Sequence record: OR621298
Length of the DNA: 64,000 nucleotides
Reading direction: 5' to 3' (one strand)
Source: Escherichia phage vB_EcoD-Elw
Shown here: positions 16,251-63,128 of the stretch, piece by piece
How the letters are laid out: each line of letters starts with the position of its first letter
Numbering within the stretch: the first letter of the stretch is position 1
Made by a program: the position numbers and the translations under genes
The notes under the pieces: model-generated
Databases searched by the model: none
The model's input: the letters and a program-made list of their open reading frames with translations, nothing else
Told to the model about the DNA's origin: nothing

Positions 16251-16279
16251 ATTATACAGAATTTTAAGGCTTAAAGCAA
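16251..16279 (-). promoter_or_regulatory. T5-type early promoter (-35 TTGCTT, 17-bp spacer, -10 TATAAT)
   Basis: Reverse complement of attata...17 nt...aagcaa with conserved ATAAATT downstream box. Confidence 0.6.
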
Positions 16280-16296
16280 CTGAATTTTTTAATTAC

Positions 16297-16728
16297 TTAC
16301 CAATCATTAACAACGCCGGAGAACTCAGAAGCAAAAACTTTTTCAAATTTCTCTGTAATTTCAGGATGATCTTTGCAGATCAGCTCAATGCATGCTTCTG
16401 GAGTCATTCCTTCATCTTCAGGATCACCATAGTATTTATCCCAAAGATCATCGGGGATGATGTGCTCCGCCAAATCTTGGAAAGAGATTAGCTGATAACG
16501 TTCTGCTTCCTCGGGGATAAGGATTTCACAAAGATCTTTATCTATATCGCTACGATAATCCGCAATTAATAGGGCATTGCAAGCATGACACTCCCAAACC
16601 ATCAAGCGTTCAGAAATAGGATTAGACTTATCCTGAACGTAAGACTGAAACAGGGTTCGGAAAGTTGCCTTAACTTGTTCAAACTTATCTGCTGCTGCGA
16701 AAACTAGAGCTTTATCAACTTTGTTCAT
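16297..16728 (-). CDS. hypothetical protein
   Basis: 143-aa ORF; RBS GAGAAGGAA. Confidence 0.55.
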   Translation of the reverse strand: MNKVDKALVFAAADKFEQVKATFRTLFQSYVQDKSNPISERLMVWECHACNALLIADYRSDIDKDLCEILIPEEAERYQLISFQDLAEHIIPDDLWDKYYGDPEDEGMTPEACIELICKDHPEITEKFEKVFASEFSGVVNDW

Positions 16729-16758
16729 TTTGATTCCTTCTCATCAATTTATAAAGTA

Positions 16759-16787
16759 ATTATACAGAAACTTAAGCATTTTAGCAA
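16759..16787 (-). promoter_or_regulatory. T5-type early promoter (-35 TTGCTA, -10 TATAAT)
   Basis: Same architecture, 17-bp spacer. Confidence 0.6.
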
Positions 16788-16895
16788 ATAAAACTTTTAG
16801 TTAAAATGCCTAATCCTGTGCCAATAGCAATACAAATGATTATAAGTATTGCTACTGTTTGTATGATTCGTTTAATAATAGCCTCAGCTATATAC

Positions 16896-17775: not shown

Positions 17776-18650
17776 TAAAGGATCCTCTGTACACCGCAGC
17801 TATCATTTTTGTCTGTGGTAAATGTGGTGATTTTGCCAGTTTCATCGTTAACCTGCGCAACCGTCAACTGCCCGTTGAAAACACCGCCAGTATCTAGGTA
17901 AACACGGTTCTGGTATAAAATCGGGTAAGGTACTCCGGTATGCCCATGAAATACAAAGTCTACTCCATTAACCGGAGGTACTTCTACCATGTATTTCTCT
18001 TTAAACCCTGCATAACGCTGGAAATGTGAGTGTTCTTCACCATTTTTAGCTAAGTGAAAACCTATTTCTTGGATTACATCTCGATCCCATAAGTATGGCT
18101 CAACATGGTATCCAGGATGGTCATGTGGGTCTTCCTTAGCTGCTTCTACTTGTGCAATAAGGCTATCCCATACTGGGGTTTCTACTTCGTTACCACATTC
18201 TTTGTACGTAAAAGGTACACCACCATGAACAACACCATACTTTTTACCACGATGCAATACAGTCAGAAATACTGGCATTTTTTCAGCCATGTCTTCAGCA
18301 ATATTTTTAATGGTATCTGCATCTAGTTCATTCATGGCCCACATACCACCGTTATACATCCAGTTAGCCCAATCTCCCACAATCATAAATTGGTCATGAT
18401 TACCACGGACACTGATAAAGCGTGGATTATACAGGAATTTGGCTAAAACTTGTAGGTTCTGCGTGCCTCGATCAATTAAATCTCCCACGCATACAACGCA
18501 GTCTTTCTTGCCATTATAGCCAGCTAATTGTAGTGCATCTTCTAGTAAATCGTTGCATCCATGAATATCACCAACAAAGAATAAGTTAACATCATCAGGT
18601 ACTACTAGTGTTTTATGCACATTAAATTCTTTTTTCATAATTATTCCCAA
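17775..18650 (-). CDS. serine/threonine protein phosphatase (PPP family, lambda-phosphatase-like)
   Basis: 291-aa ORF; GDIHG, GDLIDRG and GNHD motifs in canonical order. Confidence 0.8.
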   Translation of the reverse strand: MGIIMKKEFNVHKTLVVPDDVNLFFVGDIHGCNDLLEDALQLAGYNGKKDCVVCVGDLIDRGTQNLQVLAKFLYNPRFISVRGNHDQFMIVGDWANWMYNGGMWAMNELDADTIKNIAEDMAEKMPVFLTVLHRGKKYGVVHGGVPFTYKECGNEVETPVWDSLIAQVEAAKEDPHDHPGYHVEPYLWDRDVIQEIGFHLAKNGEEHSHFQRYAGFKEKYMVEVPPVNGVDFVFHGHTGVPYPILYQNRVYLDTGGVFNGQLTVAQVNDETGKITTFTTDKNDSCGVQRIL

Positions 18651-18886: not shown

Positions 18887-18913
18887 TTAATCCTCCTATC
18901 AATTTATATAAGT

Positions 18914-18942
18914 ATTATACCAAAATTTTTAGCTGAAAGCAA
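18914..18942 (-). promoter_or_regulatory. T5-type early promoter
   Basis: -10 TATAAT and -35 TTGCTT (reverse complement on plus), 17-bp spacer. Confidence 0.55.
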
Positions 18943-18943
18943 G

Positions 18944-18976
18944 TAAAATAAAAGCCTGATCCGCTAAGATCAGGCT
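18944..18976 (-). terminator. rho-independent terminator
   Basis: stem GCCTGATC/GATCAGGC then U-run in minus sense, just downstream of the thioredoxin-like gene. Confidence 0.6.
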
Positions 18977-24239: not shown

Positions 24240-24270
24240 ATTTAATCCTCTTGCCTCAATCTATAAACAT

Positions 24271-24299
24271 ATTATACAAAAGTTTGGGCATCTAAGCAA
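24271..24299 (-). promoter_or_regulatory. T5-type early promoter
   Basis: -10 TATAAT, -35 TTGCTT, 17-bp spacer. Confidence 0.55.
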
Positions 24300-24309
24300 C
24301 TAAAATTTT

Positions 24310-24349
24310 ATTATAAAAATAGCCCAGTCGCAAAAGTGCGTGCTGGGCT
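24310..24349 (-). terminator. rho-independent terminator
   Basis: stem AGCCCAG/CTGGGCT with AT-rich run in minus sense. Confidence 0.5.
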
Positions 24350-24393: not shown

Positions 24394-24774
24394 TTATGTA
24401 ATATTAGTTTCTCTAGCTTTGCGTAGTACCCCTGCATTTCTCCATAACTTAATATCGTCTACTGTTTCTTTATAAGGAGCTATGGTAAAACCTAGTGGGC
24501 CAGCACTAAATAACCCTAAGAATCCTATTGCACGCATATAGAACAAGCATTCTTCGCCTGTCATTTCTTCAACTGCTTTTCTTTGTTTTTCGTTTTCAAA
24601 CTCGTGCTCCTTGTTGTCTATACGAAGGTGTTTAATGAACCATTCAGCAGAATATTCATCTAAGTGTCTAAGTATAGCTACTGCATACCCAGCGCCAATT
24701 AAAAACCAAGTGGTAACAAGAATTAGTATTATAGTCATATAATCTCCAGTTAAGGTCAGCGACCAACTCACCAC
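24394..24774 (-). CDS. membrane protein
   Basis: 126-aa ORF with TM segments. Confidence 0.45.
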   Translation of the reverse strand: MVSWSLTLTGDYMTIILILVTTWFLIGAGYAVAILRHLDEYSAEWFIKHLRIDNKEHEFENEKQRKAVEEMTGEECLFYMRAIGFLGLFSAGPLGFTIAPYKETVDDIKLWRNAGVLRKARETNIT

Positions 24775-26365: not shown

Positions 26366-26395
26366 TTCAAACCTCTCTCATCAATTTATAAATAT

Positions 26396-26424
26396 ATTAT
26401 AGCAAGAAAAGAGAGGTTTAGCAA
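26396..26424 (-). promoter_or_regulatory. T5-type early promoter
   Basis: -35 TTGCTA, 17 bp, -10 TATAAT, then ATAAATTGATGAGAGAGG leader. Confidence 0.6.
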
Positions 26425-26441
26425 ATGAATTATTTCAGAAT

Positions 26442-26789
26442 TTAGTCATAGCACCACCATAATCCACGCTTACGCATGTCATGATCGCGATTATAATCAT
26501 AATTTTCTGGATCTTTCATCACGCGGTGGAGTTCTTGACGATTCCCTTGACGAACCATTTTATTAGAATGCCACTTAACATTCTTACTAATAGAATTCCA
26601 GTTATAACCATCCTTTTTCTCATTACGAATGGTTGCTTCCTTCATTTCCTGTTCTACATCATCCCAGGATTTAGCATAAATAACACGAATCCAGTAGCCA
26701 TTTTCTTTGATGAAAGAATATTCTTGAGAGAATTGTTCTTTAGACTTCCACCACTGATCACCAGATTGTTTACGATAAGTACGGCTCAT
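26442..26789 (-). CDS. hypothetical protein
   Basis: 115-aa ORF; RBS GGAGG. Confidence 0.5.
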   Translation of the reverse strand: MSRTYRKQSGDQWWKSKEQFSQEYSFIKENGYWIRVIYAKSWDDVEQEMKEATIRNEKKDGYNWNSISKNVKWHSNKMVRQGNRQELHRVMKDPENYDYNRDHDMRKRGLWWCYD

Positions 26790-26910
26790 ATTACCTCCAT
26801 TAAGTCTTTTAAATTAACCTAATGTGGATGAATTTTGTTATACATATATTATGTACCTTTATACAGAAAAACCCCAGACTACTTATTCAATAGCTGGGGT
26901 TTGTTATTAA

Positions 26911-28504: not shown

Positions 28505-28578
28505 TTGGTTTCCCTCTCATTAATTTATATAGATAGTATAACAAGAAATAAGAGAGAAGGCAAATGAATTTTTAAATT

Positions 28579-30997: not shown

Positions 30998-31357
30998 TGC
31001 GTTAACCCCTGTAAGTTTACTAAGGCTATTAGCTCGGCGTAACTACAGCACCTTCGCTTCGAGCGGAAGGAACTGCGTCATCTCGCAAACCCGATACACT
31101 ATTCAGTTGCCGCTGAATCTAGTGGACTAATCTAGAACTTCTCCCGAATTGTAGGGATCGTGCTTTTTGGCAGCCAGTCCTAGGTCGAGCTAATACCTTA
31201 GTGAACTAAATTGATGGATACCAGACTAATTTTGCTACGACGTTTATCCTGAGGATCTCTTTTTCGGTAGCTCTGCTAGTGTAGACGTCATACACCTGGT
31301 ATCTAGGCAGCTATTTTCGCATCAATTTATATAAATATTATAACAAGAAATTAAGCA

Positions 31358-31720
31358 TTAAGCAAGTACATTTTTAGCGATTTCCTGTAGTTCCTTTACA
31401 TCACGAACGTAAAGGTAATCAGAGCTTCCAGAGTGCATACTTTGCATAACCACACCTTCATCTGGTGCATTATCCTTCAAGGTAATTCCTAGCCAGAACT
31501 CGGCAAAACTAGGTGTTATCTCACCTTGACTTGCCTTGAATACATCATATTCTGTAAGTTCTTGACCAGTAGATAATCCCAAATAGACAGAACTAAGATC
31601 AATCTCTTTATGAGACTCATAAAATTCCGATAGATCTTTTTCCATATCCCAGCCATGCTGCAATGCGAACTCCATTGTCACATGACCGAAATAACCTTGA
31701 ATCTTGTTTGATAATTGCAT
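31358..31720 (-). CDS. hypothetical protein
   Basis: Track ORF 31358..31726 starts at TTG; trimmed to ATG with RBS AAGGA. Confidence 0.45.
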   Translation of the reverse strand: MQLSNKIQGYFGHVTMEFALQHGWDMEKDLSEFYESHKEIDLSSVYLGLSTGQELTEYDVFKASQGEITPSFAEFWLGITLKDNAPDEGVVMQSMHSGSSDYLYVRDVKELQEIAKNVLA

Positions 31721-31745
31721 TTGCAATTCCTTATTTTGAGTTAAT

Positions 31746-32415: not shown

Positions 32416-32725
32416 TTTGCTTTCCTTCTCTTCACTTTATAAAATATATTATACAGATAATATAGCAGAATAGCAAATGAATTTTTAATAAATTTACTTA
32501 TTGTGTAGGCCACCTGGAGGCTACCAACCCCACGGCTGACAAAGAAGTTTGCGAGACCTCTCTTAAATGCCAGAATAGACCCGCCGATCTATCGGAACCT
32601 ACATAATAAGTAAACTTTCGTTTACTTACGCCCCGTTAGAGGGACTTTAGCGACTAGAACCGGCCGGAAACTTCATCGCCTTGTTTATTCAGAAGTCCGT
32701 TCTCTAGGGAGCAGAAATCTAAATT

Positions 32726-46078: not shown

Positions 46079-46086
46079 ATGAATTT

Positions 46087-46536
46087 TTAATTTATTAACT
46101 GTAAGCTTCTTTTAATTTCAGACCTTACCTGCATCAAAAGAACTCCTAAAGTATTGTCCCCGATGCCTCGGCAAACACCCCAATATGTATCTCCCCAGGT
46201 ATTTCCTTCGATCAAAGTTGCATTTTTTGTTGCTAACAGTTTGTCTCTCAAATCAGGGATTGCAAACTTTAACCGTAAAAGCTCTAGCATTACATCATCT
46301 TTTACCTTATCCCAGTCAGAGCGTAGAGTTAATTTACGTCCTCTACGTTTGGCAACTCCTGCATTTAGGGAGCGCAGTACATGAGCTACATCATCTTTTT
46401 GGTCAGATTTCATAGCCTGAAAAGCATGTTCTACAGTATCAGCATGCCATATTTCATTTAGATATTCGAAAGTAATTGGTGATAAATAAAAGTTAGATAA
46501 GAAACTATAAGTACCTTTAAATTCAGTAATCTTCAT
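46087..46536 (-). CDS. NADAR-family (YbiA-like, DUF1768) protein
   Basis: 149-aa ORF; FKGTYSFLSNFY...EHAFQAMK matches the NADAR core as I recall it. Confidence 0.6.
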   Translation of the reverse strand: MKITEFKGTYSFLSNFYLSPITFEYLNEIWHADTVEHAFQAMKSDQKDDVAHVLRSLNAGVAKRRGRKLTLRSDWDKVKDDVMLELLRLKFAIPDLRDKLLATKNATLIEGNTWGDTYWGVCRGIGDNTLGVLLMQVRSEIKRSLQLIN

Positions 46537-46817: not shown

Positions 46818-46893
46818 AAAGCCCTCCTCACTTTCAATACGAATATTATACTAAATTAGAGAGCTTTAAGCAAGAGAATTTTTAATTTATTTA

Positions 46894-47370
46894 TTACATC
46901 TCAGCCATTTCAGCTTCAGTAATAACTGTGTTACACAGTGCATCTACAGCTTCATTACCACTAATACCAGAATGTCCTTTAACCTTAATAAAGGTAGGAT
47001 TAGTATTATGAAAGTTGATATACTGCTGTGTTAATTTAAATGCTTCCTGCCAAAGTTCTAGATTAAGAGGAACTTCACCATCTGCTTTCTTCCAGCCTTT
47101 CCTTTGCCAAGAAAACATCCAACTTTCCATACCATTTTTGCAATAAGCAGAATCAGTATAGATAACAATTGGTCTATTATCTTTTTTAACTGACCAACGT
47201 AGAGCCTCTACAATAGCCGTGAGTTCCATCTCATTATTTGTAGTTTTAGGACTATATCCAGATTTAGAACCTAAACGATCATCGTTATCATCATAGACAA
47301 TAAATCCCCAAGCACCTGGACCTGGGTTAGACTTACAAGCACCATCTGTGTAAATGTGGAAAACCGACAT
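46894..47370 (-). CDS. rnh: ribonuclease H (RNase HI-like)
   Basis: 158-aa ORF; YTDGAC, TNNEMELTA, YTDS and C-terminal D motifs in RNase HI order. Confidence 0.8.
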   Translation of the reverse strand: MSVFHIYTDGACKSNPGPGAWGFIVYDDNDDRLGSKSGYSPKTTNNEMELTAIVEALRWSVKKDNRPIVIYTDSAYCKNGMESWMFSWQRKGWKKADGEVPLNLELWQEAFKLTQQYINFHNTNPTFIKVKGHSGISGNEAVDALCNTVITEAEMAEM

Positions 47371-47893: not shown

Positions 47894-47917
47894 AGTTGTC
47901 TCCGATTTATAAAATAT

Positions 47918-47946
47918 ATTATATCTAAATTTCACTCAGTAAGCAA
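47918..47946 (-). promoter_or_regulatory. T5-type early promoter
   Basis: -10 TATAAT, -35 TTGCTT, 17-bp spacer. Confidence 0.55.
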
Positions 47947-47985
47947 ATGAAATTTAAATATAATAGCCCCGAAGGGCTATTTGAG

Positions 47986-49358: not shown

Positions 49359-50500
49359 AAGAAATCTCCAAATTCATTACCCAGATCTTTCAGAGTATCA
49401 GTAGAGGTCTCAGTTACCTGACCTACACGGTAGGCTGCACCAATCTGGATTTCTTGCGGAGCAGGCTGTAGAGAAGTAGTATCCAACCAGTTCATGATCC
49501 ACGGAATAGGGTTTTTGGTGATTACTGGTAAGTGACTAGGCCATTCTACACCAATGTGCATAAATGCATTACGCCCCACAAAGTACAGATATTCTTCTAG
49601 AAGTTCTGCGTTCAAGCCAATCAGACTACGACCTTTGAAAATGAAATGACCCCATTCAATTTCAGTTTTCAGAGTTTTCAGGAGCTGTGCTGGTGCTTTA
49701 GCCACTGCTTCATCTACCAGATCTTTATCAAACTGCTGGAACATAATCTGGATGATTGCTTTAGACATCTGGGTGTGCAGAGCCTCATCTTTAGCGATTA
49801 ATTGCAGATTTTTAGCAATACCTTGCAGAATATCGTTCTCTGCTAATGCAAAGGTACATGCAAAGGATGCGTAAAACTGCATTGCTTCCAGACCATAGAT
49901 AGCAAAGTAAGCGTCTAATAGTTTAGCCTGAGTTTCACGTTTAACTTCAGGGAACTCCGTTTCTGGATATGTATTGTCGCCACGATGATCGCGTACTGCG
50001 ATGAAATACTGACCTAACTGGTACAGTTCATCGAATAGTTCAACAGAATCAGCGATGCGTGCGAATGCTTCTTGGTTTTTGGTTACAGAATCAATAAATT
50101 CTGCTGGGTCAGTCAGCACATTACGAATAATATTGCTATAAGCACGACTATGCAGGTCTTCAAAATAGCTCCACTGTTTGAGCATACCTTCCAATTCTGG
50201 ACGACTTACAAGTGGCATAATAGCTGCTTCAGGGGCACGACTGATAAAGGAATCAGTTTGAGTCTGCCATGCTAGGTTCAGGAGTGTAATTTCCTGAATT
50301 TCCCGTGGGAGGTTAGGCCATTGTTTCTTATCTGCTTCCAGACTGATTTCAGTTTCAGTCCAAAATTGAGAGCGTTGCAGAAGTGCCAGACGTTCTAGTT
50401 CTGGATGTGCTACACGTACATAATCTGCGATACCGAGAGAATCTCCCAGGAAAAGGTCAGCATTAGTATGCTCCCAATTCAGGTTTAGTAAAGTAGTCAT
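49355..50500 (-). CDS. nrdB: ribonucleotide reductase class Ia beta subunit
   Basis: 381-aa ORF; size, ferritin-like iron-ligand spacing, position next to nrdA. Confidence 0.8.
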   Translation of the reverse strand: MTTLLNLNWEHTNADLFLGDSLGIADYVRVAHPELERLALLQRSQFWTETEISLEADKKQWPNLPREIQEITLLNLAWQTQTDSFISRAPEAAIMPLVSRPELEGMLKQWSYFEDLHSRAYSNIIRNVLTDPAEFIDSVTKNQEAFARIADSVELFDELYQLGQYFIAVRDHRGDNTYPETEFPEVKRETQAKLLDAYFAIYGLEAMQFYASFACTFALAENDILQGIAKNLQLIAKDEALHTQMSKAIIQIMFQQFDKDLVDEAVAKAPAQLLKTLKTEIEWGHFIFKGRSLIGLNAELLEEYLYFVGRNAFMHIGVEWPSHLPVITKNPIPWIMNWLDTTSLQPAPQEIQIGAAYRVGQVTETSTDTLKDLGNEFGDFL

Positions 50501-50531
50501 TGATTTTCCTCTTTCTCACTATTTCAGGAAT

Positions 50532-50560
50532 ATTATAGCAAATCTGGTAGCGATTAGCAA
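50532..50560 (-). promoter_or_regulatory. T5-type early promoter
   Basis: -10 TATAAT, -35 TTGCTA, 17-bp spacer upstream of nrdB. Confidence 0.5.
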
Positions 50561-50606
50561 GTAAAATTTCAAAGAAAAAGGAGACCCGAAGATCTCCTTA
50601 TTTTTA

Positions 50607-52937
50607 TTAAATAGTACAACCACCGGATGCACAACCGGCTGCTTCTTCTCCAGCACCTCCACCATTTGCGGTATTGAAGTTAGCATAATACCAAGTTTTC
50701 CACCCATACTTAACAGCAGTCATGAAATCACGAACTACTACTGGACCAGGAATGATTTCATTCTCAAACTTGGTGTAGTCATAGTACATATTCGTACTGA
50801 TAGACTGACTGAAGAATTTCTGCATAGTTGCTACCCATTTGATCCACTCGATACGATCTACATCATAAGCCAGTTTATAGCTCATTAACGTTTCCCAATC
50901 GGTTGCACCCGGAGCAATTGCAATTACTTTATTCACTGCACTACCCTTGATAGATACAATCTTACGAGGCGGTTCAATAGAGTTAGTAACACCTAACAGA
51001 ACAGAAGAACTTTCTCCCGGCATCTGAGCAGTCAGAACAGAGTTACGCATACCGTATTTCAGAATATCTGCACGCAGAGACTCCCAATCCATTTCTAGAC
51101 CTACGGATACCAGTTCATCAACAGTTTTCTTGTACGTGTCTATTACCAGAATTCCTTTAGATGGTTTAGTACGATCAAACCACTCACATGCACCCTGTTC
51201 TTTAGCTAGGCGTACAGAGGCTTTATGCAGGAAGTAAGACAGTTTTTCAGCCTCACGGTGAATCCAGTTACGGGCTTCAATACCTTCATAAGCCAGACCT
51301 TCTGCTGCCATTGCACCTGCTGCGTTCATCAGGCCAATACCAACATTACGACGTTTCTTAGCCGTATATTCCATAGTTGGGAACGGATAATCCTGAATTT
51401 CAATAATTGTATCAACGAATTTCAGAAGGATGTAGCAAGTTTTTTCCCACTCAGCCAGAGATTCCATGCGCCCCAGTACAACACCACCTAAGTTACACAG
51501 AGATACTTCACCAATGTCCTCCGGCTTCATTTGATCAAGCTGCTCTTTTGTCTTATACAGCTCTGTAATGTGATGGAATGGGCGTGTAGGCTGAGTAATC
51601 TCAACACAAAGGTTTGTCATACGGATCGGATCAAGGAAATTACCGTGACGATTAGATTCCCCGATATGATGAGCATACATACGTCCTGTTTCCATTCGGA
51701 TACGTAGCCAAGTATCTAGGATTTCTTTTGCAGAGACTTTAGGAGCTGCAGGAACTGTTTTTCCTTCGTGGTCGATCTTTGTAAGAGATGCCACACGTTT
51801 CTCCGCTGCCACGTAGATTTCTTCAAATTTAGCCTCGTCATCACTATAAAACGCTTCATGAACTTCTGGAGCATAGAAGTATGACATTAGCGTAATATCT
51901 TCATTTTTCAGATAACGTTTTAACAAAAGATTGTTGAAACTCAGAGAATAATCCATCTTATCGATTTTATTCTCATCTGTAGCACGTTGTTGCTTAACCT
52001 GCATCAATTGAATGATTTCAGGGTCGAAGTACGGATAAGACACTGTAGCAGAACCACCACGAGTTTGCTGAGTATTGGCCTTTACTGAGCGGTCAATGTG
52101 TCGATAATATGGCAGTTTTCCGGAATGCGGGAATGCCCCATTTCGCACCGGATCAGCAATTGATCGGCTTTCAAGATGATACCCGATTCCCGCTCTGGCT
52201 GCGACCATTTTGAAGACGATGTGCTCGGCGGTGTCGATTGAATCCAACGTGTCAGTGGAATCCACGAGGCAGCAACTAGCAAATCCACGGTCACTAGAGC
52301 GCAGACCAACCAGTGGCGGCGTAGGAACGTTGATTTTGTGGAGTGACATTGCGTTGTAGAGGTCGATTGCATCTAGAATTGTCCAGTTAGGTTGAGATAG
52401 CATCGCCATTGCCATACCCATGTAGGCAAACTGCGGGGTTTCATAAATTTCACCAGTGGCTATATTACGACGGGAATATTTATCAAAGAACTGTTTCAGC
52501 CCACCACTAGTAAAAAGACGGTCACGATCATGGTCGATAACCTGATTCAGAGCTTCAAATTGCTCATCGGTAATCCATGCACTCATGTCTTCCCATGCAC
52601 CTACGCTAACCATGTGGTCATGGAAGAAACGTAGAGAAGGTGGTTCGAAAGAGTCATAAAGGCGCTTACGCATTTGCGCAAGACGTAATTCCTTTGCTGG
52701 CACATCGTATGCTGGGTTATCTTTGATAAGACTTTCAGCAGCTTTAATTAATGCGTCCATCAGAGTGTCGGAATCTACAACCCCTTTAGGTAGAGTTTTT
52801 TGAGCAGCCATAGTAATGGCTGACCAACTTACATCAACTGTTTTGCAACCATACTCCGCCCAACCATTGAGTTTTTCAGGAGCAAAGTCTTCTACAGTAC
52901 CGTCACGTTTAATTACTTTTTCAATGCGATGGCTCAT
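50607..52937 (-). CDS. nrdA: ribonucleotide reductase class Ia alpha subunit
   Basis: Track ORF 50607..53042 trimmed to MSHRIEKVIKRDG (ATP-cone start) with RBS AAAGGAAAG. Confidence 0.85.
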   Translation of the reverse strand: MSHRIEKVIKRDGTVEDFAPEKLNGWAEYGCKTVDVSWSAITMAAQKTLPKGVVDSDTLMDALIKAAESLIKDNPAYDVPAKELRLAQMRKRLYDSFEPPSLRFFHDHMVSVGAWEDMSAWITDEQFEALNQVIDHDRDRLFTSGGLKQFFDKYSRRNIATGEIYETPQFAYMGMAMAMLSQPNWTILDAIDLYNAMSLHKINVPTPPLVGLRSSDRGFASCCLVDSTDTLDSIDTAEHIVFKMVAARAGIGYHLESRSIADPVRNGAFPHSGKLPYYRHIDRSVKANTQQTRGGSATVSYPYFDPEIIQLMQVKQQRATDENKIDKMDYSLSFNNLLLKRYLKNEDITLMSYFYAPEVHEAFYSDDEAKFEEIYVAAEKRVASLTKIDHEGKTVPAAPKVSAKEILDTWLRIRMETGRMYAHHIGESNRHGNFLDPIRMTNLCVEITQPTRPFHHITELYKTKEQLDQMKPEDIGEVSLCNLGGVVLGRMESLAEWEKTCYILLKFVDTIIEIQDYPFPTMEYTAKKRRNVGIGLMNAAGAMAAEGLAYEGIEARNWIHREAEKLSYFLHKASVRLAKEQGACEWFDRTKPSKGILVIDTYKKTVDELVSVGLEMDWESLRADILKYGMRNSVLTAQMPGESSSVLLGVTNSIEPPRKIVSIKGSAVNKVIAIAPGATDWETLMSYKLAYDVDRIEWIKWVATMQKFFSQSISTNMYYDYTKFENEIIPGPVVVRDFMTAVKYGWKTWYYANFNTANGGGAGEEAAGCASGGCTI

Positions 52938-53007
52938 TTGGCTTTCCTTTTTATATTTATCAGGATTTAAGGAATATTCTACTTTATTATTGGTCATTAG
53001 GCAAATA

Positions 53008-53040
53008 AAATTTTCTGATAGAAAAGGCCCGGGTATTTTC
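53008..53040 (-). terminator. rho-independent terminator
   Basis: stem GGGCCTGGGTA/TACCCGGGCC followed by UUUU in minus sense. Confidence 0.55.
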
Positions 53041-53079
53041 ATACCCAGGCCCTGTATATTACCAGTCTAGCTTTTTAGC

Positions 53080-53302: not shown

Positions 53303-54055
53303 TTACACCTTCCCCATGTCTTTAAAGATGTCATAGAATGCTTTAGACTCAACAGAACGAACGTTATCAATCAATTCAATCATTGAGAATGGGGCATTTT
53401 CGTATTTCTCATAGACTTCCATAAGGAGTGCTAGACCTGAGTCACCTTTAATGTCTTTCTGAGCTATATCTCCGCAGATAATTAAACGGCAGTCTTGCCC
53501 TACACGAGTTAGAAGACAAATCATTGCCTCAACGGAAATATTCTGAGCTTCATCGACAATTACATAGGAGTTGTTGAAAGTTCTGCCACGAGCATGTTCG
53601 ACAGCCAAAAATTTAATTTTCTGACGTTCGACATATCCCTTATAGGCGTGATCGCCGATGGCCCATTTCATACCATCAGCTATTGGCTCTAACCAAGGCT
53701 CTAGCTTTTCCGCTAGATCACCAGGAAGCATACCAAGAGACTTACCTAGAGGTTCATTAGGACGTACGAGAATCACTTGCTCAATATCTGAGTGAATGTC
53801 TACGAGTTCCTGAGCTGCAAGAACGGACGGAATAAAGGTTTTACCAGTACCTGGCTCACCGATACCCACAGTTACTGTGTTGTTCTTGATCATATTGATA
53901 TATGATTTTTGCTCGCGGTTTTTACCTACTAGGGATTTAGCAACTGGGTTAGCGTAATCATTAGAAAAATCAGCCTGAATTACGTTATTCTCATATTTGT
54001 TGCCACGCTTTCTTGAACCATTGCGGTTCTCTCTTTTTTGACGTGCTTTTCCCAT
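53303..54055 (-). CDS. phoH: PhoH-like P-loop ATPase
   Basis: Track ORF (GTG) trimmed to ATG with RBS AGGAG; Walker A GEPGTGKT. Confidence 0.75.
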   Translation of the reverse strand: MGKARQKRENRNGSRKRGNKYENNVIQADFSNDYANPVAKSLVGKNREQKSYINMIKNNTVTVGIGEPGTGKTFIPSVLAAQELVDIHSDIEQVILVRPNEPLGKSLGMLPGDLAEKLEPWLEPIADGMKWAIGDHAYKGYVERQKIKFLAVEHARGRTFNNSYVIVDEAQNISVEAMICLLTRVGQDCRLIICGDIAQKDIKGDSGLALLMEVYEKYENAPFSMIELIDNVRSVESKAFYDIFKDMGKV

Positions 54056-54128
54056 AAATAACACTCCTATAGTGTACTTCGCTAACAGAGGATCAACAAA
54101 AAGATCTTGTTTATCAACTTACAAATAT

Positions 54129-54157
54129 ATTATACCAATATATACAGTAAAAAGCAA
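54129..54157 (-). promoter_or_regulatory. T5-type early promoter
   Basis: -10 TATAAT, -35 TTGCTT, 17-bp spacer upstream of phoH. Confidence 0.55.
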
Positions 54158-54349
54158 CTACAATTTTAAATAAGCCTATGATATTGCATTTAAATAAAAA
54201 ATTTGCTTGCTTTTAACGTGAGATGTGTGATACTAGATAATCATTTTATATCGCGTGCACGAGTGCGTGATTATACAATTTTTAATAGAAATTGGCAAAT
54301 AAAATTTTTTGACTCAGATCATGTTGCAGAACTTTATAGTAAAATATTG

Positions 54350-54378
54350 TTGACATCCGCCCTCGAATGAGTTATAAT
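54350..54378 (+). promoter_or_regulatory. consensus sigma70 promoter (-35 TTGACA, -10 TATAAT) for nrdD
   Basis: Perfect hexamers with 17-bp spacer, ~30 nt upstream of the nrdD start. Confidence 0.65.
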
Positions 54379-54407: not shown

Positions 54408-56282
54408 ATGAATCGTAATGAAGAACTAAAATATAAAGAAATGCAGGCGTTAATTAGAAACTGCAAAGAGATTATCGAAGGGTCAGCGGATGAAGAGCTG
54501 CTGTTTAATAATGCCAATAAACCCTCAGAACGTTTCCCTACACAGAGGGATATGCTTGCAGGTGAATTGAGTAAGTATCTGATTCTAGAAGAAATGCCAA
54601 TTCAGATTCGAAATGCTCATATGATTGGGGATATTCATTTCCATGATGCTGATTATGCTGCATTAGGCATGACTAATTGTTGTCTGGTAGCTCTGGAAGA
54701 TATGTTGAAGAATGGTATGAAGGTTGGTAATGCTGAAATTAGCACTCCAAACTCTATCACTACTGCAGCGGCTATTACTGCTCAGATTATCACTCAAGTT
54801 AGCTCCCATCAGTATGGGGGCACTTCCGTGGATCGCCTTGATGAAGTATTAGCTCCTTATGTTCGTAAATCCTATGACAAAAATCATGCGTTTGCAAAAC
54901 GTTGGACTAAGGATGAAGCCAAAGCATCAGTAATGGCTACGGAGATGACTGAAAAAGAAGTCTATGACGCTTGTCAGGGTTTAGAATATGAAATCAATAC
55001 CATGTTCAACTCTAATGGTCAGAGTCCATTTATTACCTTTGGTTTTGGTCTAGGAACTTCTTGGGAAGCACGTCTAGTACAGAAAGCAATATTGAAAGTA
55101 CGCATGGATGGTTTAGGTATCAATAAACGTACAGCTATCTTCCCGAAACTGGTATTTGTACTTCGTGATGGCGTAAATATGAAACCAGGGGATGTTAGTT
55201 ATGACATCAAGAAGTTAGCTATGAAATGTACTGCTGAACGTATGTATCCAGATTATATCAGCTATGACAAGGTTGTAGAAGTTACTGGAGACTATAAAGT
55301 TTCTATGGGCTGCCGTTCATTCCTAGCTGCTACAGAAGATGGTGAAACTGCTGGTCGTAATAACTTAGGTGTTGTTTCTGTAAACTTGCCTAGAATTGCT
55401 ATCGAAGCTGAAGGAAATATTGATCTATTCTTTGATTTGCTTGAGCTACGTGTGGATACAGCGTTAAAAGCATTGGAGTGGAGAGTTGATCGCTTAAAAT
55501 ACATCCAAGCTAAAGCTGCACCCATCCTCTATATGTCAGGAGCCTTTGGGTTACGCTTGGAGCCTGATGAATATGTATTCGATCATTTCTATAACCGTGC
55601 TTCTGTATCTCTAGGATATATTGGTTGCCATGAAATGCTACAGTTCATGTTTGGCAAAGATGTAGATACAATGTCCGAGACCTGCATCAAGTTTGTTCAG
55701 CGTGTGCTGCAGTACATGCGAGATAGAGTCGATCAGAAGAAGGAGGAGACTAAGTTAGGTTATAGCCTGTATGCTACACCGTCGGAATCCCTATGCGATC
55801 GTTTTTGTCGTCTAGACCGTGAATATTTCCCGGAGCATGAAGATATTCTGTCCAAAGGATACTACACTAACTCTCACCACCTTGATGTGGAACGTAAAGT
55901 TGCTCCCAACGTGAAATTTGATTATGAATCTAACTTTACTCCGATTGCTTCTGGTGGGTGTATTTCCTATGTAGAACTACCGGATATGAAACGATTCCCA
56001 GATGCACTAGAATGGGTTATTAATTATGCTGCTAGTAAAGTTCATTACTTCGGTATTAATACTCCGGTGGATTCTTGTGGTAAATGTGGATTCTTAGGTG
56101 AAACAGTAGCATCCGAAGATGGGTTTAAGTGCCCTATCTGTGGTAATCATGACCCCGAAACTCTTGAAGTAACTCGTCGAGTTTGTGGGTATCTTGGAAA
56201 TCCAGGTGCTCGTCCATTTAACCCAGGCAAACAGCATGAGGTTATGGGCAGAGTGAAACATCAGGATATTCGAGCTAAATAA
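54408..56282 (+). CDS. nrdD: anaerobic ribonucleoside-triphosphate reductase (class III)
   Basis: 624-aa ORF; C-terminal Cys cluster (CGKCG...CPICG) and glycyl-radical motif RVCGYLG; RBS GAAGGAGAG. Confidence 0.85.
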   Translation: MNRNEELKYKEMQALIRNCKEIIEGSADEELLFNNANKPSERFPTQRDMLAGELSKYLILEEMPIQIRNAHMIGDIHFHDADYAALGMTNCCLVALEDMLKNGMKVGNAEISTPNSITTAAAITAQIITQVSSHQYGGTSVDRLDEVLAPYVRKSYDKNHAFAKRWTKDEAKASVMATEMTEKEVYDACQGLEYEINTMFNSNGQSPFITFGFGLGTSWEARLVQKAILKVRMDGLGINKRTAIFPKLVFVLRDGVNMKPGDVSYDIKKLAMKCTAERMYPDYISYDKVVEVTGDYKVSMGCRSFLAATEDGETAGRNNLGVVSVNLPRIAIEAEGNIDLFFDLLELRVDTALKALEWRVDRLKYIQAKAAPILYMSGAFGLRLEPDEYVFDHFYNRASVSLGYIGCHEMLQFMFGKDVDTMSETCIKFVQRVLQYMRDRVDQKKEETKLGYSLYATPSESLCDRFCRLDREYFPEHEDILSKGYYTNSHHLDVERKVAPNVKFDYESNFTPIASGGCISYVELPDMKRFPDALEWVINYAASKVHYFGINTPVDSCGKCGFLGETVASEDGFKCPICGNHDPETLEVTRRVCGYLGNPGARPFNPGKQHEVMGRVKHQDIRAK

Positions 56283-56289: not shown

Positions 56290-56320
56290 AGCCGGGTTGC
56301 TAGTCGACCTGGCTTTTATT
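56290..56320 (+). terminator. rho-independent terminator
   Basis: GC-rich imperfect stem followed by TTTTATTTTATT. Confidence 0.5.
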
Positions 56321-56324
56321 TTAT

Positions 56325-56353
56325 TTGCTTTCAGCCAAAAATTTATATATAAT
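56325..56353 (+). promoter_or_regulatory. T5-type promoter (-35 TTGCTT, -10 TATAAT), PN25-like architecture
   Basis: 17-bp spacer; downstream ATAAATTTGAGAGGAG leader. Confidence 0.65.
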
Positions 56354-56381
56354 AGATTTATAAATTTGAGAGGAGAAAGAT

Positions 56382-58634: not shown

Positions 58635-58636
58635 AT

Positions 58637-59065
58637 ATGTTCAATAATGTATTCTCTAAAGAAGCTAACCCAATTTTGGTTAACTTTTGGCGTACTCTCC
58701 CGGCTAGCCTGTATAATGAGGCTATTAACTCCTTGAAAATATGGTGTGAGAATAACGAAATCTCCTTTGCTTTTAAAGATGATATTGATGAGGCCCCCTG
58801 TATTGGTCTAGTTGTGCAGGTAGAGGAGGGTCTTGAAGAGATTGTGGGCTGGAAAGAGTTAGACGAAATGGGCTTAGTTTTTGCGTTAAATTATAAGCTG
58901 TTTATGCCTGCTAAGCATCGCCTAGTTGTTAACTATAAAACTAGTGAATCTCCTGGTTTTCAGGTTAATGAACGTTATGGTTGGTCTTACTCACCGGAAG
59001 AAGTAAATGATGGTATCCAAAAACTTCGTCGTTTTGGTTATCAAATTCCGGGTTTAACCGCCTAA
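58637..59065 (+). CDS. hypothetical protein (paralog of next gene)
   Basis: 142-aa ORF; shares PCIG, MGL..ALN and GYQIPGL-type motifs with 59075..59467. Confidence 0.5.
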   Translation: MFNNVFSKEANPILVNFWRTLPASLYNEAINSLKIWCENNEISFAFKDDIDEAPCIGLVVQVEEGLEEIVGWKELDEMGLVFALNYKLFMPAKHRLVVNYKTSESPGFQVNERYGWSYSPEEVNDGIQKLRRFGYQIPGLTA

Positions 59066-59074
59066 GGGGGCATA

Positions 59075-59516: not shown

Positions 59517-59558
59517 CCGTACTTAAGACCAATGATAGCACCATCCGGAAAATTTTAC

Positions 59559-59587
59559 TTGCATGATGCCCAAAATCTTGATATAAT
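59559..59587 (+). promoter_or_regulatory. sigma70-type promoter (-35 TTGCAT, -10 TATAAT)
   Basis: 17-bp spacer; ~500 nt non-coding leader before the 929-aa gene. Confidence 0.5.
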
Positions 59588-60084
59588 ATTTATATTGAAT
59601 TGAGAGACATTAGTAAAAATTGATTTTGCTAATTTTTCTTGTTTACAATCCGCGATACGGAACAGTTAGGCTGCCCCATTAAGGGTTGTTTTAACTATTA
59701 CTAGTGTTTATATTGCATTAGTTAATCTTCAATTAAGTGATCTGTGTACCCTGAATTCGGAAAGGTAAATCCAAACCGTGCATATTTAGCTCGTTATATA
59801 GGCAGAGTTTTATATGGGGGTGCGAACGAAAAGAGCAGCGAATGGCGGCACGTACAGTAGTCACCTACCAATAGGATAGTGAGGACAAATAGAATCGGCT
59901 TAGCGGCCAATGACCTAGGTTCTATTCTGTATATGAGCGAAGAGAGCACAGCACTGAGATATGATAACTTATTCATATTGCTTGATGATAATTAATGTTT
60001 ACGTAAATAGTAGTAATAGTTGTTCTATTCTTTCTGAATAGTCCTAAAGAAAAGATTTCGATTAACCAACACAGGAGTATTGTT

Positions 60085-62874
60085 GTGTTTTCTATTCTCC
60101 AAGGTCACGCCGGATTTTCTCGTGATTTAGCAACAGGTATTTGGCGAGAAATCAAAGCGGAAGATTATACCTTTGCCAAGCGATTCTCGAAAAAGCATCC
60201 AGAAGGTAAACCAGCTTCTATGCCCTTCAAATTTGATGTAATAGAAGAGCATGACCCGCAAAGCCTTGCCGAAATGTTACCACTTATGAGACGTTTAACG
60301 TCTGACCCTCATATCGTTGCGGTACGAGGTCGATGTCTTGCACCTAAAAATAACGTGCGACGTAAGAAAGGTAACTTTAATGTATCTAATCCTAGTAATA
60401 TTATTGCTATGGACGTGGATGGTATCCTAGATACCGGTGGGTATGACAAGTTTAACCTTGTTGGTATGGCCCGCCACATTATTAAGATGTTGAATAGTAT
60501 TAGTGAGGACATGTTCCCTCTTGATGCAGGCTTTATAGCTCATGCATCGTCTTCGGCTGGGCTTAAACCAGGTATCCGAATGCACTTAATGCTAGAATCT
60601 AACGTCAAGGTAACTCAGGGTCAGTTAAAGTTCTTATTTACATCTATCAACGATAGTAGTAAGCAAAAATTTGGTTTTGATATTGCCGACTTAGCTTATT
60701 ATTCATCTGTCCAGCTCCACTATTTTGCCGACCCCTTATTTAGTGATGGTATTGTTGATCCGTTTAAAGCGGAGAGTAAGCCACGTCTGGTGTATGTTAA
60801 AGGTTCGAAAGTAAATTTGCCCAATAATCTGGTTGACTATGAAACAACTAGAGGGGAGTTTAAGGAAGAGTTTTATTCTTTACTTGATCAAATTAAAGGC
60901 AAAAAGATCGCGTCTGATAAAGTAGAAGAAACCATCAGCGAATTGGAAGAAGCTGAGGATGGGGTGTACCTGCGTATTATCCCCAAACTATACCATAGAG
61001 CATTAGAGGATGGTGTTGATTTTGCATGGCTAGAACGTGAGATTAAACCCGCTTTATCTGAATATATTGCAACTAAAGATAACAGTCGTAATATTCAAGA
61101 TTACTTTAATAACGGTCGTAAGCAGGCTCTCAAAGCGTTTGTTAATAATTCTAAACGTGAGATTCCATTAAATCTGAAAGGTGTTCCGCTCAAGAAGTTA
61201 GAAGTGGATTCTCCACCAGAAGTTCCGTACCTGAAGATTAACATTGTGCCTCCAAAAGGCCATATAACATTTGTTAAGGCAAGTCTTGGTACTGGTAAAA
61301 CTACGGCAGTAACTAAATGGCTGGACGCAGGTGTTCTTCCTGGCAACTTTTTAGCAGTTACAAATACTAGAGCACTGGTATCTTCAAACGCTAAGAAATT
61401 TAGCGCAGGACAATATGATAAGTCTGTAGATATGCTCAACTTTAAACGTGGAGCTATTGATCGTATGTCCACAACTATTCACTCTTTGCATAAGTTCAAA
61501 AGTTTTATTGGTCAAATAGATACCATTTTTATTGATGAATGTGATGCTGTAATGAATGATCTATTATTCGCACCTGTTGTTAAGCAACGTCGCGAATGTA
61601 TTCAAGTTCTACGTGACATCCTCATGACAGCTAAAACTGTAATTCTATCAGATGGTGATATTAGTGCCGAAACTATTGAAGCATATGGTTCTCTAATTGA
61701 TTTTGATAAACCAGTAGCATTTTATAATCATCACCGTAAGATGCTGTCAAAAGCTCATGCTTATGAGTTCCCGGATGAGTCCAGTATTTGGGTTGCACTT
61801 CAGACTTCTCTAGAGATGGGTGAGAAATCTATCCTAGTATCTGATTGTGGGCCGGATGAACTGAATGAGAAGGGCATGGCGTTGCGTCGTAATACGGGTG
61901 CATTAGTTAAGGAAATCCACTCAAACTCTACGTCTGATGTAGATATTAGACGTATTCTGGATTACACAACTAATGAGCTAATTGACCAACAAATTGATTG
62001 CTTATTATGTAGTCCATCTGTAACGAGTGGTGTTGACTTTAACTATTTTGATAACGTATTCGTTATCACTAGAACTAGCAACCAAGCGCCAAACATGCGT
62101 TTCCAAGCAATCAGGCGCGACCGTGGTGCTCAGAATATCTATTATTTTATTGATAAATCCACTAGTGGGTTCTCCGCAGGTTCTGAACAATATAATATTG
62201 ATGAAGGTTGGCTGGAGTTAGCACAGCAATTATACGCACGTCGCAGAGAACTAGAATCTAGGAACTATACTAGTACTTTACGTTATTACTTGCTTGATCA
62301 GGGTGCAACTATTGATATTTTCAGCGAAAGCTGGGGAACTATTGAAGGTGCTGGTAAAGAATACACAGAAGAGCGAATCAAAGCTATCCTACATTCAACT
62401 CCGGATTACTGTGCACCACGTCATGCGGATGCGTATGAGGCTAAACTACTTCTTGTTCGCTATTATCATCTTGAGTCTATTAAAGATGTAACAGTTGAGC
62501 ATGTTGAACAATATATCAAAGATAAACCGAATGATCGAGCTGCATTCTTCCATAAGATGCACGAGATGTTCTGGGAAGATATTAAGAAGTGTTCAAATGT
62601 GACCATTAAACCATTCATAGAGGCTCTGAAAGGTAAGAAGAAAGACTTCTTCCTTAAAACAGGTCAGAGTGCTAACCCAAAATATGCTAGAATGTATCTT
62701 GGTATGATGGGTATTGGTAAGGATATGAACACTGAAAATATTGTAGACTGGTACAGAACCTATTGTAAAATCGAGTGTATGCCAATCCCATATAAGTTTA
62801 TGACTGATGAGGAGAAACATATGCATGATGAAGCAATGGCAGAGCTAGGTGCTAGAAATGACAGTGAAGAATAA
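60085..62874 (+). CDS. large P-loop NTPase, helicase-like (possible replication-associated protein)
   Basis: 929-aa ORF, GTG start after RBS CAGGAG; Walker A ASLGTGKTTAV and DExD-like FIDECDAV. Confidence 0.55.
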   Translation: MFSILQGHAGFSRDLATGIWREIKAEDYTFAKRFSKKHPEGKPASMPFKFDVIEEHDPQSLAEMLPLMRRLTSDPHIVAVRGRCLAPKNNVRRKKGNFNVSNPSNIIAMDVDGILDTGGYDKFNLVGMARHIIKMLNSISEDMFPLDAGFIAHASSSAGLKPGIRMHLMLESNVKVTQGQLKFLFTSINDSSKQKFGFDIADLAYYSSVQLHYFADPLFSDGIVDPFKAESKPRLVYVKGSKVNLPNNLVDYETTRGEFKEEFYSLLDQIKGKKIASDKVEETISELEEAEDGVYLRIIPKLYHRALEDGVDFAWLEREIKPALSEYIATKDNSRNIQDYFNNGRKQALKAFVNNSKREIPLNLKGVPLKKLEVDSPPEVPYLKINIVPPKGHITFVKASLGTGKTTAVTKWLDAGVLPGNFLAVTNTRALVSSNAKKFSAGQYDKSVDMLNFKRGAIDRMSTTIHSLHKFKSFIGQIDTIFIDECDAVMNDLLFAPVVKQRRECIQVLRDILMTAKTVILSDGDISAETIEAYGSLIDFDKPVAFYNHHRKMLSKAHAYEFPDESSIWVALQTSLEMGEKSILVSDCGPDELNEKGMALRRNTGALVKEIHSNSTSDVDIRRILDYTTNELIDQQIDCLLCSPSVTSGVDFNYFDNVFVITRTSNQAPNMRFQAIRRDRGAQNIYYFIDKSTSGFSAGSEQYNIDEGWLELAQQLYARRRELESRNYTSTLRYYLLDQGATIDIFSESWGTIEGAGKEYTEERIKAILHSTPDYCAPRHADAYEAKLLLVRYYHLESIKDVTVEHVEQYIKDKPNDRAAFFHKMHEMFWEDIKKCSNVTIKPFIEALKGKKKDFFLKTGQSANPKYARMYLGMMGIGKDMNTENIVDWYRTYCKIECMPIPYKFMTDEEKHMHDEAMAELGARNDSEE

Positions 62875-63091
62875 AAAATGGGAAACAAGGAAGTTCCCAG
62901 TAAAAGAACGTAAAGTTCCTGTTTATGATACTTCGGAAAAGCTATGTAGGGTGGTACCACGTAGATTAGCTGGTATCCCTAACATATCCGAGTGGTTACT
63001 TAAACAACGGAAAACAAACGTGTCTCTTCGCATCGGCTTTGAATTAGATAAAGTCTATGCTGAACTTGCTTCTTTGCTCAAGGAATCGTAA
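62858..63091 (+). CDS. hypothetical protein
   Basis: Track ORF 62849..63091 trimmed to ATG with RBS AGGTG; overlaps the end of the upstream gene. Confidence 0.35.
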   Translation: MTVKNKKWETRKFPVKERKVPVYDTSEKLCRVVPRRLAGIPNISEWLLKQRKTNVSLRIGFELDKVYAELASLLKES

Positions 63092-63099
63092 AAATTTAT

Positions 63100-63128
63100 T
63101 TGCTTTCAGGAAAAATTTTCTGTATAAT
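63100..63128 (+). promoter_or_regulatory. PN25-type strong T5 promoter
   Basis: aaaatttatttgctttcaggaaaaattttctgtataatagattcataaatttgagagaggag is near-identical to the published T5 PN25 sequence as I recall it. Confidence 0.8.

Follow-up and report, generated by a model that had tools for sequence, protein, structure and literature searches.

The 64,000 nt of Escherichia phage vB_EcoD-Elw analysed here (sequence record OR621298; referred to below as the window) contain 27 copies of a shared module of approximately 60-75 bp, all confined to positions 16251-63128. Judged by their sequence, these copies are very probably sigma-70 promoters of the early class in a T5-like phage (Tequintavirus), carrying a transcribed start of the kind that aids promoter escape at the T5 promoter N25. 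The parts of the module are, in order, an A-tract (-45 to -41), a -35 hexamer TTGCTW, a 17-bp spacer, a -10 hexamer TATAAT, an AT-rich discriminator and, from +1, the sequence ATAAATTRA. The T5 early promoter family and the N25 initial transcribed sequence (ITS) are highly non-random and are already known in the type phage. The additions made here are a class-wide start consensus of 7-9 nt, the independence of this start from coding context, and its conservation across the Demerecviridae, including phages of Vibrio.

A search of the whole window for TTGCTW-N17-TATAAT with no more than one mismatch returned 26 matches, where dinucleotide-preserving shuffles gave an expectation of 2.01 and a largest count of 7. 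When the flanks of each match were printed, 24 of the 26 were found to share sequence well beyond both hexamers. The matches at 32417 (+) and 58890 (-), which have neither the upstream (UP) block nor the leader and fall under the threshold of the position weight matrix (PWM) described next, were set aside as chance occurrences. The PWM was trained on the UP, -35 and -10 blocks alone, with the leader left out, and recovered 27 copies with scores of 16.7-39.1, the null maximum being 13.7. Three copies (28535, 36026 and 52976; copies are named here by the lower coordinate of the core, which runs from the -35 through the -10) were gained in this way over the pattern used in the original prediction, a reading of the letters alone that had claimed at least 20 instances of a single strong promoter design followed by a conserved transcribed leader; the 27 copies bear this out, as sigma-70 promoters with a shared transcribed start. 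The -35 and -10 hexamers match TTGCTW-N17-TATAAT exactly in 22 copies and with one mismatch in two, and the remaining three are weaker copies found via the PWM. The spacer is 17 bp long in 26/27, and 24 copies lie on the minus strand and three on the plus strand. The PWM scan found no copy in the first 16 kb of the window, which comprises the terminal repeat and the pre-early region. The module had also been said to stand upstream of most early genes; this holds for most early transcription units but not for most genes, since, set against 27 promoters, the corresponding interval of T5 has about 90 coding sequences (CDS) and over 24 tRNAs.

Alignment of 23 copies on the -10 hexamer, a check proposed with the original prediction, produced a logo in which the UP, -35, -10 and start blocks are all shared. 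In the upstream block, A occupies -45 to -42 in 19-22 of the 23 copies and T occupies -40 in every one, while TTGC at -35 to -32 and the TATAAT hexamer are invariant. Conservation of the spacer is partial and takes the form of G/C at positions -26 to -24, an A-tract over -21 to -19, a T at -16 and a G at -13, with less than 0.31 bit at -29 to -27 and -23/-22. Past the -10, 22/23 copies have A at -6, 20/23 have T at -3 and all 23 have a pyrimidine at -1, within a discriminator whose consensus in the window copies is A-T-a-T-t-Y (ATATTY, -6 to -1). The start block then reads A+1 (15/23), T+2, A+3 to A+5 and T+6/T+7 (each in 16-20 of 23) before passing into a purine-rich stretch, and positions +2 to +7 hold 0.8-1.2 bit.

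A generic sigma-70 consensus scan of the AT-rich window showed no enrichment (48 matches against 52 expected) and, hence, the module signal is specific to this promoter family; copies with TTGCTT escape a generic scanner because only three of its six positions agree with TTGACA. The logo does not contain an extended -10 (TGnTATAAT, with TG at -15/-14), since the frequent TG abuts the hexamer one position off (cTGTATAAT, with T at -14 in 12/23 and G at -13 in 16/23). The sequence AAAAWTT at -45 to -39 resembles the proximal-subsite consensus of UP elements (about -46 to -38) and is a candidate site for the polymerase alpha-CTD. An UP element is labelled in Fig. S5 of Klimuk et al. (2020).

Over its entire length, terminal repeat included, the window matches the left 64 kb of the T5 genome in collinear order, with single segments 84-98 % identical and an overall identity of approximately 92 %, and positions 62000-64000 share 96-97 % identity with T5-like phages. 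The T5 reference record NC_005859 lists about 45 promoter features, mostly 75 bp long and many of them named. In short BLAST searches, 24 of the 27 copies land on these features with 86-100 % identity, and two more (47918 and 54270) were matched to T5 promoters by collinear offset, bringing the orthologues of annotated features to 26/27 and leaving 52976 as the sole copy without a promoter annotation in T5. The named counterparts are PN25, PH207, PD/E33, P16-17, P15a/b/c, P14a/b, P13a/b, P11 and P-F30. The plus-strand copy at 63100-63128, which the original prediction had matched to PN25, indeed agrees with it at 70 of the 73 positions aligned; a single substitution falls between -35 and +20, and +1 to +20 is identical. 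For the T5 orthologues P15A and Ppol, early kinetics have been recorded by primer extension. Beyond Klimuk et al. (2020), we found no literature giving genome-wide maps of transcription start sites or a promoter consensus for T5-like phages.

In the numbering of Klimuk et al. (2020), TATAATAGATTCAT represents -12 to +2 of N25, which places +1 at the A of ATAAATT, and the pyrimidine at -1 and predominant A at +1 in the logo fit the same assignment in the other copies. This box begins 6 nt past the -10 in most copies and 7 nt past it in some. Among the 27 copies the ATAAATTTGA-like transcript start contains a perfect ATAAATT in 15 and ATAAATT with at most one mismatch in 19. Across the window, ATAAAKT is found 5-7 nt past 17 of the 32 TTG-N(19-21)-TATAAT cores, compared with 0.00 in shuffles, and past only 1 of the 59 TATAAT hexamers that lack a -35 TTG. 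Its 69 occurrences in total (53 expected) include the 17 at promoters, and those elsewhere are at chance level. The box is, therefore, tied to promoter context.

A start codon linked to a Shine-Dalgarno sequence (SD) lies downstream of 19 copies, with a 5′ untranslated region (UTR) of 17-34 nt, and six copies (36948, 34938, 35655, 41338, 31337 and 59559) have no SD-linked gene next to them. In copy 36948, tRNA-Ser(GCT) starts at +9 (position 36932), directly after ATAAATTC; tRNA-Cys starts at +43 of copy 34938, a tRNA-Tyr/Glu/Trp/Phe cluster starts at +60 of copy 35655, and the T5 orthologues of 41338 and 31337 (P16-17 and P13b) precede stable RNAX and RNA2H. A perfect ATAAATT is present in four of these six copies and the GAGAGG part in none of them. 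Likewise, a copy in Vibrio phage Morian at 2419 (-) directly precedes tRNA-Ile, with ATAAATTAAG. Because promoters of tRNA and stable-RNA genes retain it as well, the box cannot be chiefly a signal for translation, and it is neither confined to start codons nor positioned by them, its distance from the -10 being fixed while that to the ATG ranges over 17-34 nt. The proposal that the leader is a shared translational enhancer cannot, on these grounds, explain the box, and the published role of N25 +3 to +20 is in promoter escape. The leader consists of two adjacent elements, a start-anchored box that is independent of the cargo and an ordinary strong SD that is found at coding genes only.

Though it was claimed that the ATGA within the leader systematically over-extends the reading frames called downstream, only 4/19 downstream open reading frames (ORFs) are over-extended when the first start is taken, and only 1/19 through the leader ATG. 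The leader ATG rarely has this effect because the TAA and TGA in ATAAATTGA are mostly in-frame stops. The single case is copy 16251, where the ATG at +9 is in frame with an 83-aa ORF whose own 5′ UTR is 26 nt; the remaining three over-extended ORFs begin further upstream, within the promoter or beyond it. Separately, the T5 record puts the start of nrdA 35 codons further upstream than the one preferred here, for a protein of 811 aa, so that promoter 52976 falls inside the annotated CDS (window 52937-53041, minus strand). This T5-style start is probably over-extended, and the start that yields a 776-aa NrdA has a good SD and ATG.

In T5, the box occurs in nearly all of the early promoters with TTGCTW. 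The pre-early promoters PH22 and p6411 lack it, as do the late promoters PG25 and PJ5 and most promoters of the TTGACA type (P12, PK28b, p53884 and p20998). To follow the box beyond T5, approximately 40 kb around the origin-binding-protein gene was compared in five phages of decreasing similarity, namely Salmonella phage bombadil (87 %), Klebsiella phage IME260 (72 %), Proteus phage PL1 (68 %), and the Vibrio phages Morian and phi 3. Promoters in these relatives were picked by an AT-rich upstream block together with TTG-N(19-21)-TATAAT, and the sequence downstream was not used. T5 and all five relatives show ATAAATT or ATAAAKT as their consensus over +1 to +7, and each relative locus holds 4-11 examples of core plus box, compared with 0.00 in shuffles. 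The promoters upstream of D2 in the relatives have unrelated spacers and the same TATAAT-AGWTYC-ATAAATT. Recent duplication was considered as the source of the similarity and was rejected, as the spacers are variable and the same positions are kept in very distant relatives. The likeness of the copies is, on this evidence, a product of selection on particular positions and not of recent copying.

The best-supported account of a shared start of this kind is the following. After the second-step-transfer DNA has entered the cell, the host RNA polymerase in its unmodified form would transcribe from the early promoters. The A-tract at about -45 to -41 would act in the manner of an UP element and, together with TTGCTW and a perfect TATAAT at the optimal 17-bp spacing, should give very tight polymerase binding, while the AT-rich discriminator ATATTY, the pyrimidine at -1 and A+1 would fix the start site. 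Escape is the limiting step at promoters of this type, and the AT- and purine-rich native start ATAAATTRA would let the polymerase scrunch along the initial ~11 nt and so leave the promoter fast. In front of coding genes the box leads straight into a GAGAGG/AGGAG SD, giving a short (17-34 nt), unstructured 5′ UTR, and before tRNA and stable-RNA genes the ATAAATT part alone is retained.

Support for the escape step comes from N25. In published work, replacement of its +3 to +20 (antiDSR; Kammerer et al. 1986) reduces full-length RNA to about 1/10 with a longer abortive ladder, and lengthens the escape half-life from ~3 to ~45 min. The Hsu laboratory has concluded that the native AT-rich N25 ITS evolved to speed escape at an escape-limited promoter, and the effect of the ITS on productive and abortive RNA is seen with pure host polymerase. 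From this demonstration for N25 we infer, by analogy, a fast-escape role in the other copies. Several observations weigh against so simple a view. The escape experiments concern a single promoter and a drastic replacement, and promoters that are otherwise clear (46845, 50532 and 54270) lack the box, which is thus not obligatory. Library and next-generation sequencing studies report no universal ITS motif for escape, only context-dependent preferences and a correlation with purines, and, hence, escape optimisation alone does not obviously predict the exact same heptamer in phages of hosts from E. coli to Vibrio. Moreover, +3 to +9 is more sequence-specific than plain AT-richness would need.

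The most serious of the rival explanations holds that the discriminator and ATAAATTRA form a class-specific regulatory target, at which a phage factor would recognise either the polymerase complexes or the DNA sequence itself and shut all early promoters jointly at the early-to-late switch; the candidates are gpT5.026, which binds the polymerase beta subunit, and D5. A regulatory target had been offered as one reading of the leader, and Klimuk et al. (2020) propose the adjacent early-specific ATATT discriminator as the determinant for gpT5.026. The distribution of the box fits, as it is missing from T5 pre-early, late and most TTGACA-type promoters though all classes use sigma-70, and so does its sequence-specific conservation beyond AT-richness across distant hosts, which would be expected of a conserved partner. 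Klimuk et al. (2020) found that gpT5.026 lowers the affinity of the polymerase for an N25 -12/+2 non-template oligonucleotide 8-fold, and that phage mutant in gpT5.026 make more early and fewer late transcripts. However, gpT5.026 has little effect in vitro, and the literature examined reports no binding of a phage protein to +1 to +9. D5 is described in the T5 record as a DNA-binding protein involved in early-gene shut-off and is annotated in all five relatives that keep the box, but nothing follows from this co-occurrence, as D5 is among the core genes of replication. The ITS effect seen with pure host polymerase already accounts for selection, and we regard this explanation as unlikely. The same low standing is given to the broader proposal that ATAAATTRA and ATATTY together make up a Demerecviridae-wide cis element of the early class that would be read sequence-specifically during initial transcription, whether by the scrunching polymerase and sigma-70 or by a conserved phage factor (gpT5.026 or D5). 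If that were true, some 30-40 promoters would be switched off together at the early-to-late transition, and fast escape would be only part of the reason for conservation.

A quite improbable alternative is that recombination or gene conversion, and not functional selection alone, keeps the copies alike, with modules of ~75 bp marking the boundaries of portable cassettes as in the PeSL of T4-type phages. Six of the 44 edges of homology between the window and T5 lie within 10 nt of a module, compared with 1.95 expected (P about 0.013). Among them are edges at +1 (47910; 50525/50530), one near +11 (41320) and one where the UP region ends (46088/46089). Neither flank of copy 31337 has a counterpart in T5. 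The test is confounded, however, as breakpoints and promoters both favour intergenic DNA. The spacers differ freely among copies, and the same positions are kept in Vibrio phages that otherwise share no promoter sequence, which points to functional selection and not to homogenisation; recombination at repeats would, in any case, be a consequence of the repeats and not their purpose.

It is more doubtful still that the leader is an RNA element, that is, an A/U-rich unstructured 5′ end aiding 30S binding as an S1-type enhancer or stabilising early mRNA. A/U-rich tracts upstream of SDs are known enhancers, and 19 copies have the box 8-20 nt ahead of a strong SD, within a UTR of 17-34 nt for which almost no structure is predicted. 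Against an RNA element, the box is not known to resemble the epsilon sequence of T7 gene 10, it is kept in tRNA and stable-RNA promoters that lack an SD, the 8-nt leader of tRNA-Ser would be processed off, and the position of the box is fixed relative to the -10 and +1 (6-7 nt) and not relative to the start codon. Nor is the leader any less structured than shuffled sequence, and structure in the leaders was rejected (minimum free energies of 0 to -5.7 kcal/mol, mean z of +0.27, no different from shuffles). Searched against Rfam at gathering thresholds, the window gave matches to tRNAs alone, and none of the module copies matched a known leader or riboswitch family. An effect on translation or on RNA stability may contribute to selection in the mRNAs, yet it cannot explain the copies before RNA genes. 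Finally, TAAATT at +2 to +7 fits the minimal -10 pattern TAnnnT and might direct a sigma-70-dependent promoter-proximal pause, with the polymerase held over the SD (about +16 to +18) while a factor is loaded or the first ribosome is coupled, but this is highly improbable: though TAAAKT appears at +2 to +7 in 16/29 window promoters and 4-20 promoters per relative, and pauses from -10-like ITS elements are reported to be widespread in E. coli and used by lambdoid phages, the N25 papers examined describe abortive products of 2-10 nt, escape at about +11 and no sigma-dependent pause, the pause and arrest data of Strobel & Roberts (2014) concern only N25anti, where the element is missing, the annotation shows no Q-like antiterminator in the vicinity, and the likeness to a -10 may simply come from AT-richness.

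The individual copies are listed here by span (-47 to +10 in the first), followed by core, +1 and leader. All those up to 54310 are on the minus strand. The first, 16235-16291 (core 16251-16279, +1 at 16244, ATAAATTAA), is the orthologue of the T5 promoter 16245-16319, with 100 % identity over 74 nt, and the next, 16743-16799 (core 16759-16787, +1 at 16752, ATAAATTGA), that of P-F30. The early promoter at 18898-18954 (core 18914-18942, +1 at 18907, ATAAATTGA; T5 18550-18624) takes the T-tract of the upstream hairpin as its UP region. Then follow 24255-24311 (core 24271-24299, +1 at 24264, ATAGATTGA; T5 24443-24517), 26380-26436 (core 26396-26424, +1 at 26389, ATAAATTGA; T5 26722-26796) and a weaker copy with TTGCCT and TATACT at 28519-28575 (core 28535-28563, +1 at 28528, ATAAATTAA; T5 P11). 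The P13b orthologue is at 31321-31377 (core 31337-31365, +1 at 31330, ATAAATTGA) and that of P13a, which has a 7-nt discriminator, at 32432-32488 (core 32448-32476, +1 at 32440, ATAAAGTGA).

In the tRNA region, the P14b orthologue lies at 34922-34978 (core 34938-34966, +1 at 34931, ATAAATTGA). Beside it, at 34891-34931, some 110 nt have been lost relative to T5, comprising most of the small ORF T5.070, and P14b retains an SD and ATG. The P14a orthologue at 35639-35695 (core 35655-35683) has a -35 of TTGCTC and the degenerate leader CTAATTTGA. The copy with an 18-bp spacer and TTGCCT, at 36010-36067 (core 36026-36055, +1 at 36019, ATAAATTGA), is 100 % identical to P15c over 74 nt. The promoter placed directly on a tRNA, at 36932-36988 (core 36948-36976, +1 at 36940, no SD), corresponds to P15b, and 37487-37543 (core 37503-37531, +1 at 37496, ATAAATTTG) to P15a. 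The P16-17 orthologue is at 41322-41378 (core 41338-41366, +1 at 41331, ATAAATTAG). Two tRNA-like elements on the minus strand, 41043-41114 and 36763-36837, match the Rfam tRNA model at 35.5 and 40.3 bits and are not reported by ARAGORN; the first lies below the 41338 promoter in a non-coding region homologous to T5 stable RNAX, where a tRNA-Arg is also found downstream, and the position of the second corresponds to T5 tRNA-Ile2(CAU).

The best PWM score, 39.1, belongs to the P-D/E33 orthologue at 41995-42051 (core 42011-42039, +1 at 42004, ATAAATTAA). It is followed by 42835-42891 (core 42851-42879, TTAAATTGA; T5 43067-43141), by 44162-44218 (core 44178-44206, ATAAATTTG, 34-nt UTR; T5 44393-44467) and by the P-H207 orthologue at 46034-46090 (core 46050-46078, 7-nt discriminator, ATAAATTGA). 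Degenerate leaders occur at 46829-46885 (core 46845-46873, TATTGAAAGTGAGGAGG; T5 46337-46411, upstream of rnh) and at 50516-50572 (core 50532-50560, CTGAAATAG; T5 50061-50135), the latter with a terminator hairpin directly upstream. Between them, 47902-47958 (core 47918-47946, +1 at 47910, ATAAATCGG, 17-nt UTR) corresponds by collinearity to T5 46937-47011. The weakest copy (TTGCCT and TAGAAT, score 16.7) is at 52960-53016 (core 52976-53004, leader TTAAATC), its SD and ATG leading into nrdA. That at 54113-54169 (core 54129-54157, GTAAGTTGA), with a leader of 67 nt to phoH, is 100 % identical to T5 53638-53712 over 74 nt, and at 54254-54310 (T5 53776-53850) a UP block and -10 are present with a -35 of TTGCCA and the GC-rich CACGCACTCGTGCACGCG in place of ATAAATT. 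The plus-strand copies are at 56313-56369 (core 56325-56353, +1 at 56360, ATAAATTTG; T5 55708-55782), at 59547-59603 (core 59559-59587, TTGCAT, TTGAATTGA; T5 58999-59073) and at 63088-63144 (core 63100-63128, +1 at 63135, ATAAATTTGAGAGAGGAG), the last being the PN25 orthologue with a 25-nt UTR to the D2 gene.

Several features adjoin these copies. Hairpins resembling intrinsic terminators stand directly upstream at 18943-18975, 56290-56324, 50578-50599 and 47947-47975. In 18914 and 56325 the terminator T-tract CTTTTATTTTA replaces the usual A-tract, so that the terminator and the UP region overlap (for 56325, hairpin 56290-56314). Homology to T5 ends exactly at +1 of copy 47918, downstream of which is a window-specific 84-aa ORF. 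It also breaks at approximately +11 of copy 41338, at the UP edge of copy 46050, near 35632 and, around copy 31337, in the stretch 31218-31744. In T5, the HNH gene hegH is inserted right after the orthologue of 50532. The repeated promoters may serve as junctions for recombination or insertion.

The region 54113-54378 is a divergent control region in which the tandem minus-strand copies 54270 and 54129 face a plus-strand promoter that matches the consensus perfectly, TTGACA-17-TATAAT (54350-54378), and precedes nrdD. The CACGCACTCGTGCACGCG at the start of copy 54270 is a near-palindrome and might be an operator or a 5′ hairpin. The promoter strand flips from minus to plus between 54298 and 54350, in agreement with a change in the sign of the GC skew at about 54 kb, and this flip marks the point at which two early transcription arms diverge. 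On the plus strand, approximately 490 nt (59595-60084) contain no ORF longer than 60 aa, from the 59559 promoter to the GTG of the origin-binding-protein gene (60085). T5 has the same long leader, with its promoter at 58999-59073 and the CDS from 59545, and this stretch might encode a non-coding RNA, act as a regulatory leader or belong to a replication origin.

For annotation, the module provides a very specific promoter model for T5-like phages, marking 27 transcription-unit starts here in a family overlooked by generic sigma-70 scans, and it corrects at least one probable start codon, that of nrdA. Both the promoters and the N25 leader are in textbook use, in the pQE/pDS vectors for expression and in studies of abortive initiation, and nothing fundamental about them changes. 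The exact conservation sharpens the question of why this particular sequence is kept and touches on the mechanism of the T5 early-to-late switch.

Of the known systems, the nearest are the T5 early promoters themselves (PN25, PN26, PH207, PD/E33 and P11-P16; Gentz & Bujard 1985; NC_005859), with which the copies share synteny and the 75-bp architecture. The window represents a different isolate, however, with 52976 as an extra copy and different downstream cargo at 31337, 41338, 47918 and 50532. Promoter cassettes known as PeSL were reportedly described in T4-type phages by Arbiol et al. in 2010. Like the module, they involve many near-identical early promoters at cassette boundaries in a hyperplastic early region, and some breakpoints fall at module edges here, but the module has no obligatory stem-loop partner and the evidence for recombination is weak and confounded. 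The pause elements of lambdoid PR′ appear to share a -10-like TAnnnT in the first 7 transcribed bases, whereas the window has no Q-binding element or Q gene and no pause is reported for N25. The window copies carry ATATTY, as T5 does, in agreement with the early discriminator ATATT of Klimuk et al. (2020); the discriminator alone was highlighted there, whereas the conserved block seen here is unbroken to about +9. Lastly, ATAAATTTGAGAGAGGAG at 63135-63152 is the N25 ITS, which also goes by the name of downstream sequence region (DSR) and has a documented part in promoter escape and abortive cycling, and its first 7-9 nt are common to the other copies. In the literature on this sequence (Kammerer et al. 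1986; Hsu laboratory 2003-2025) it has been treated as a property of one promoter, whereas here its first 7-9 nt extend across the promoter class and the phage family, RNA genes included.

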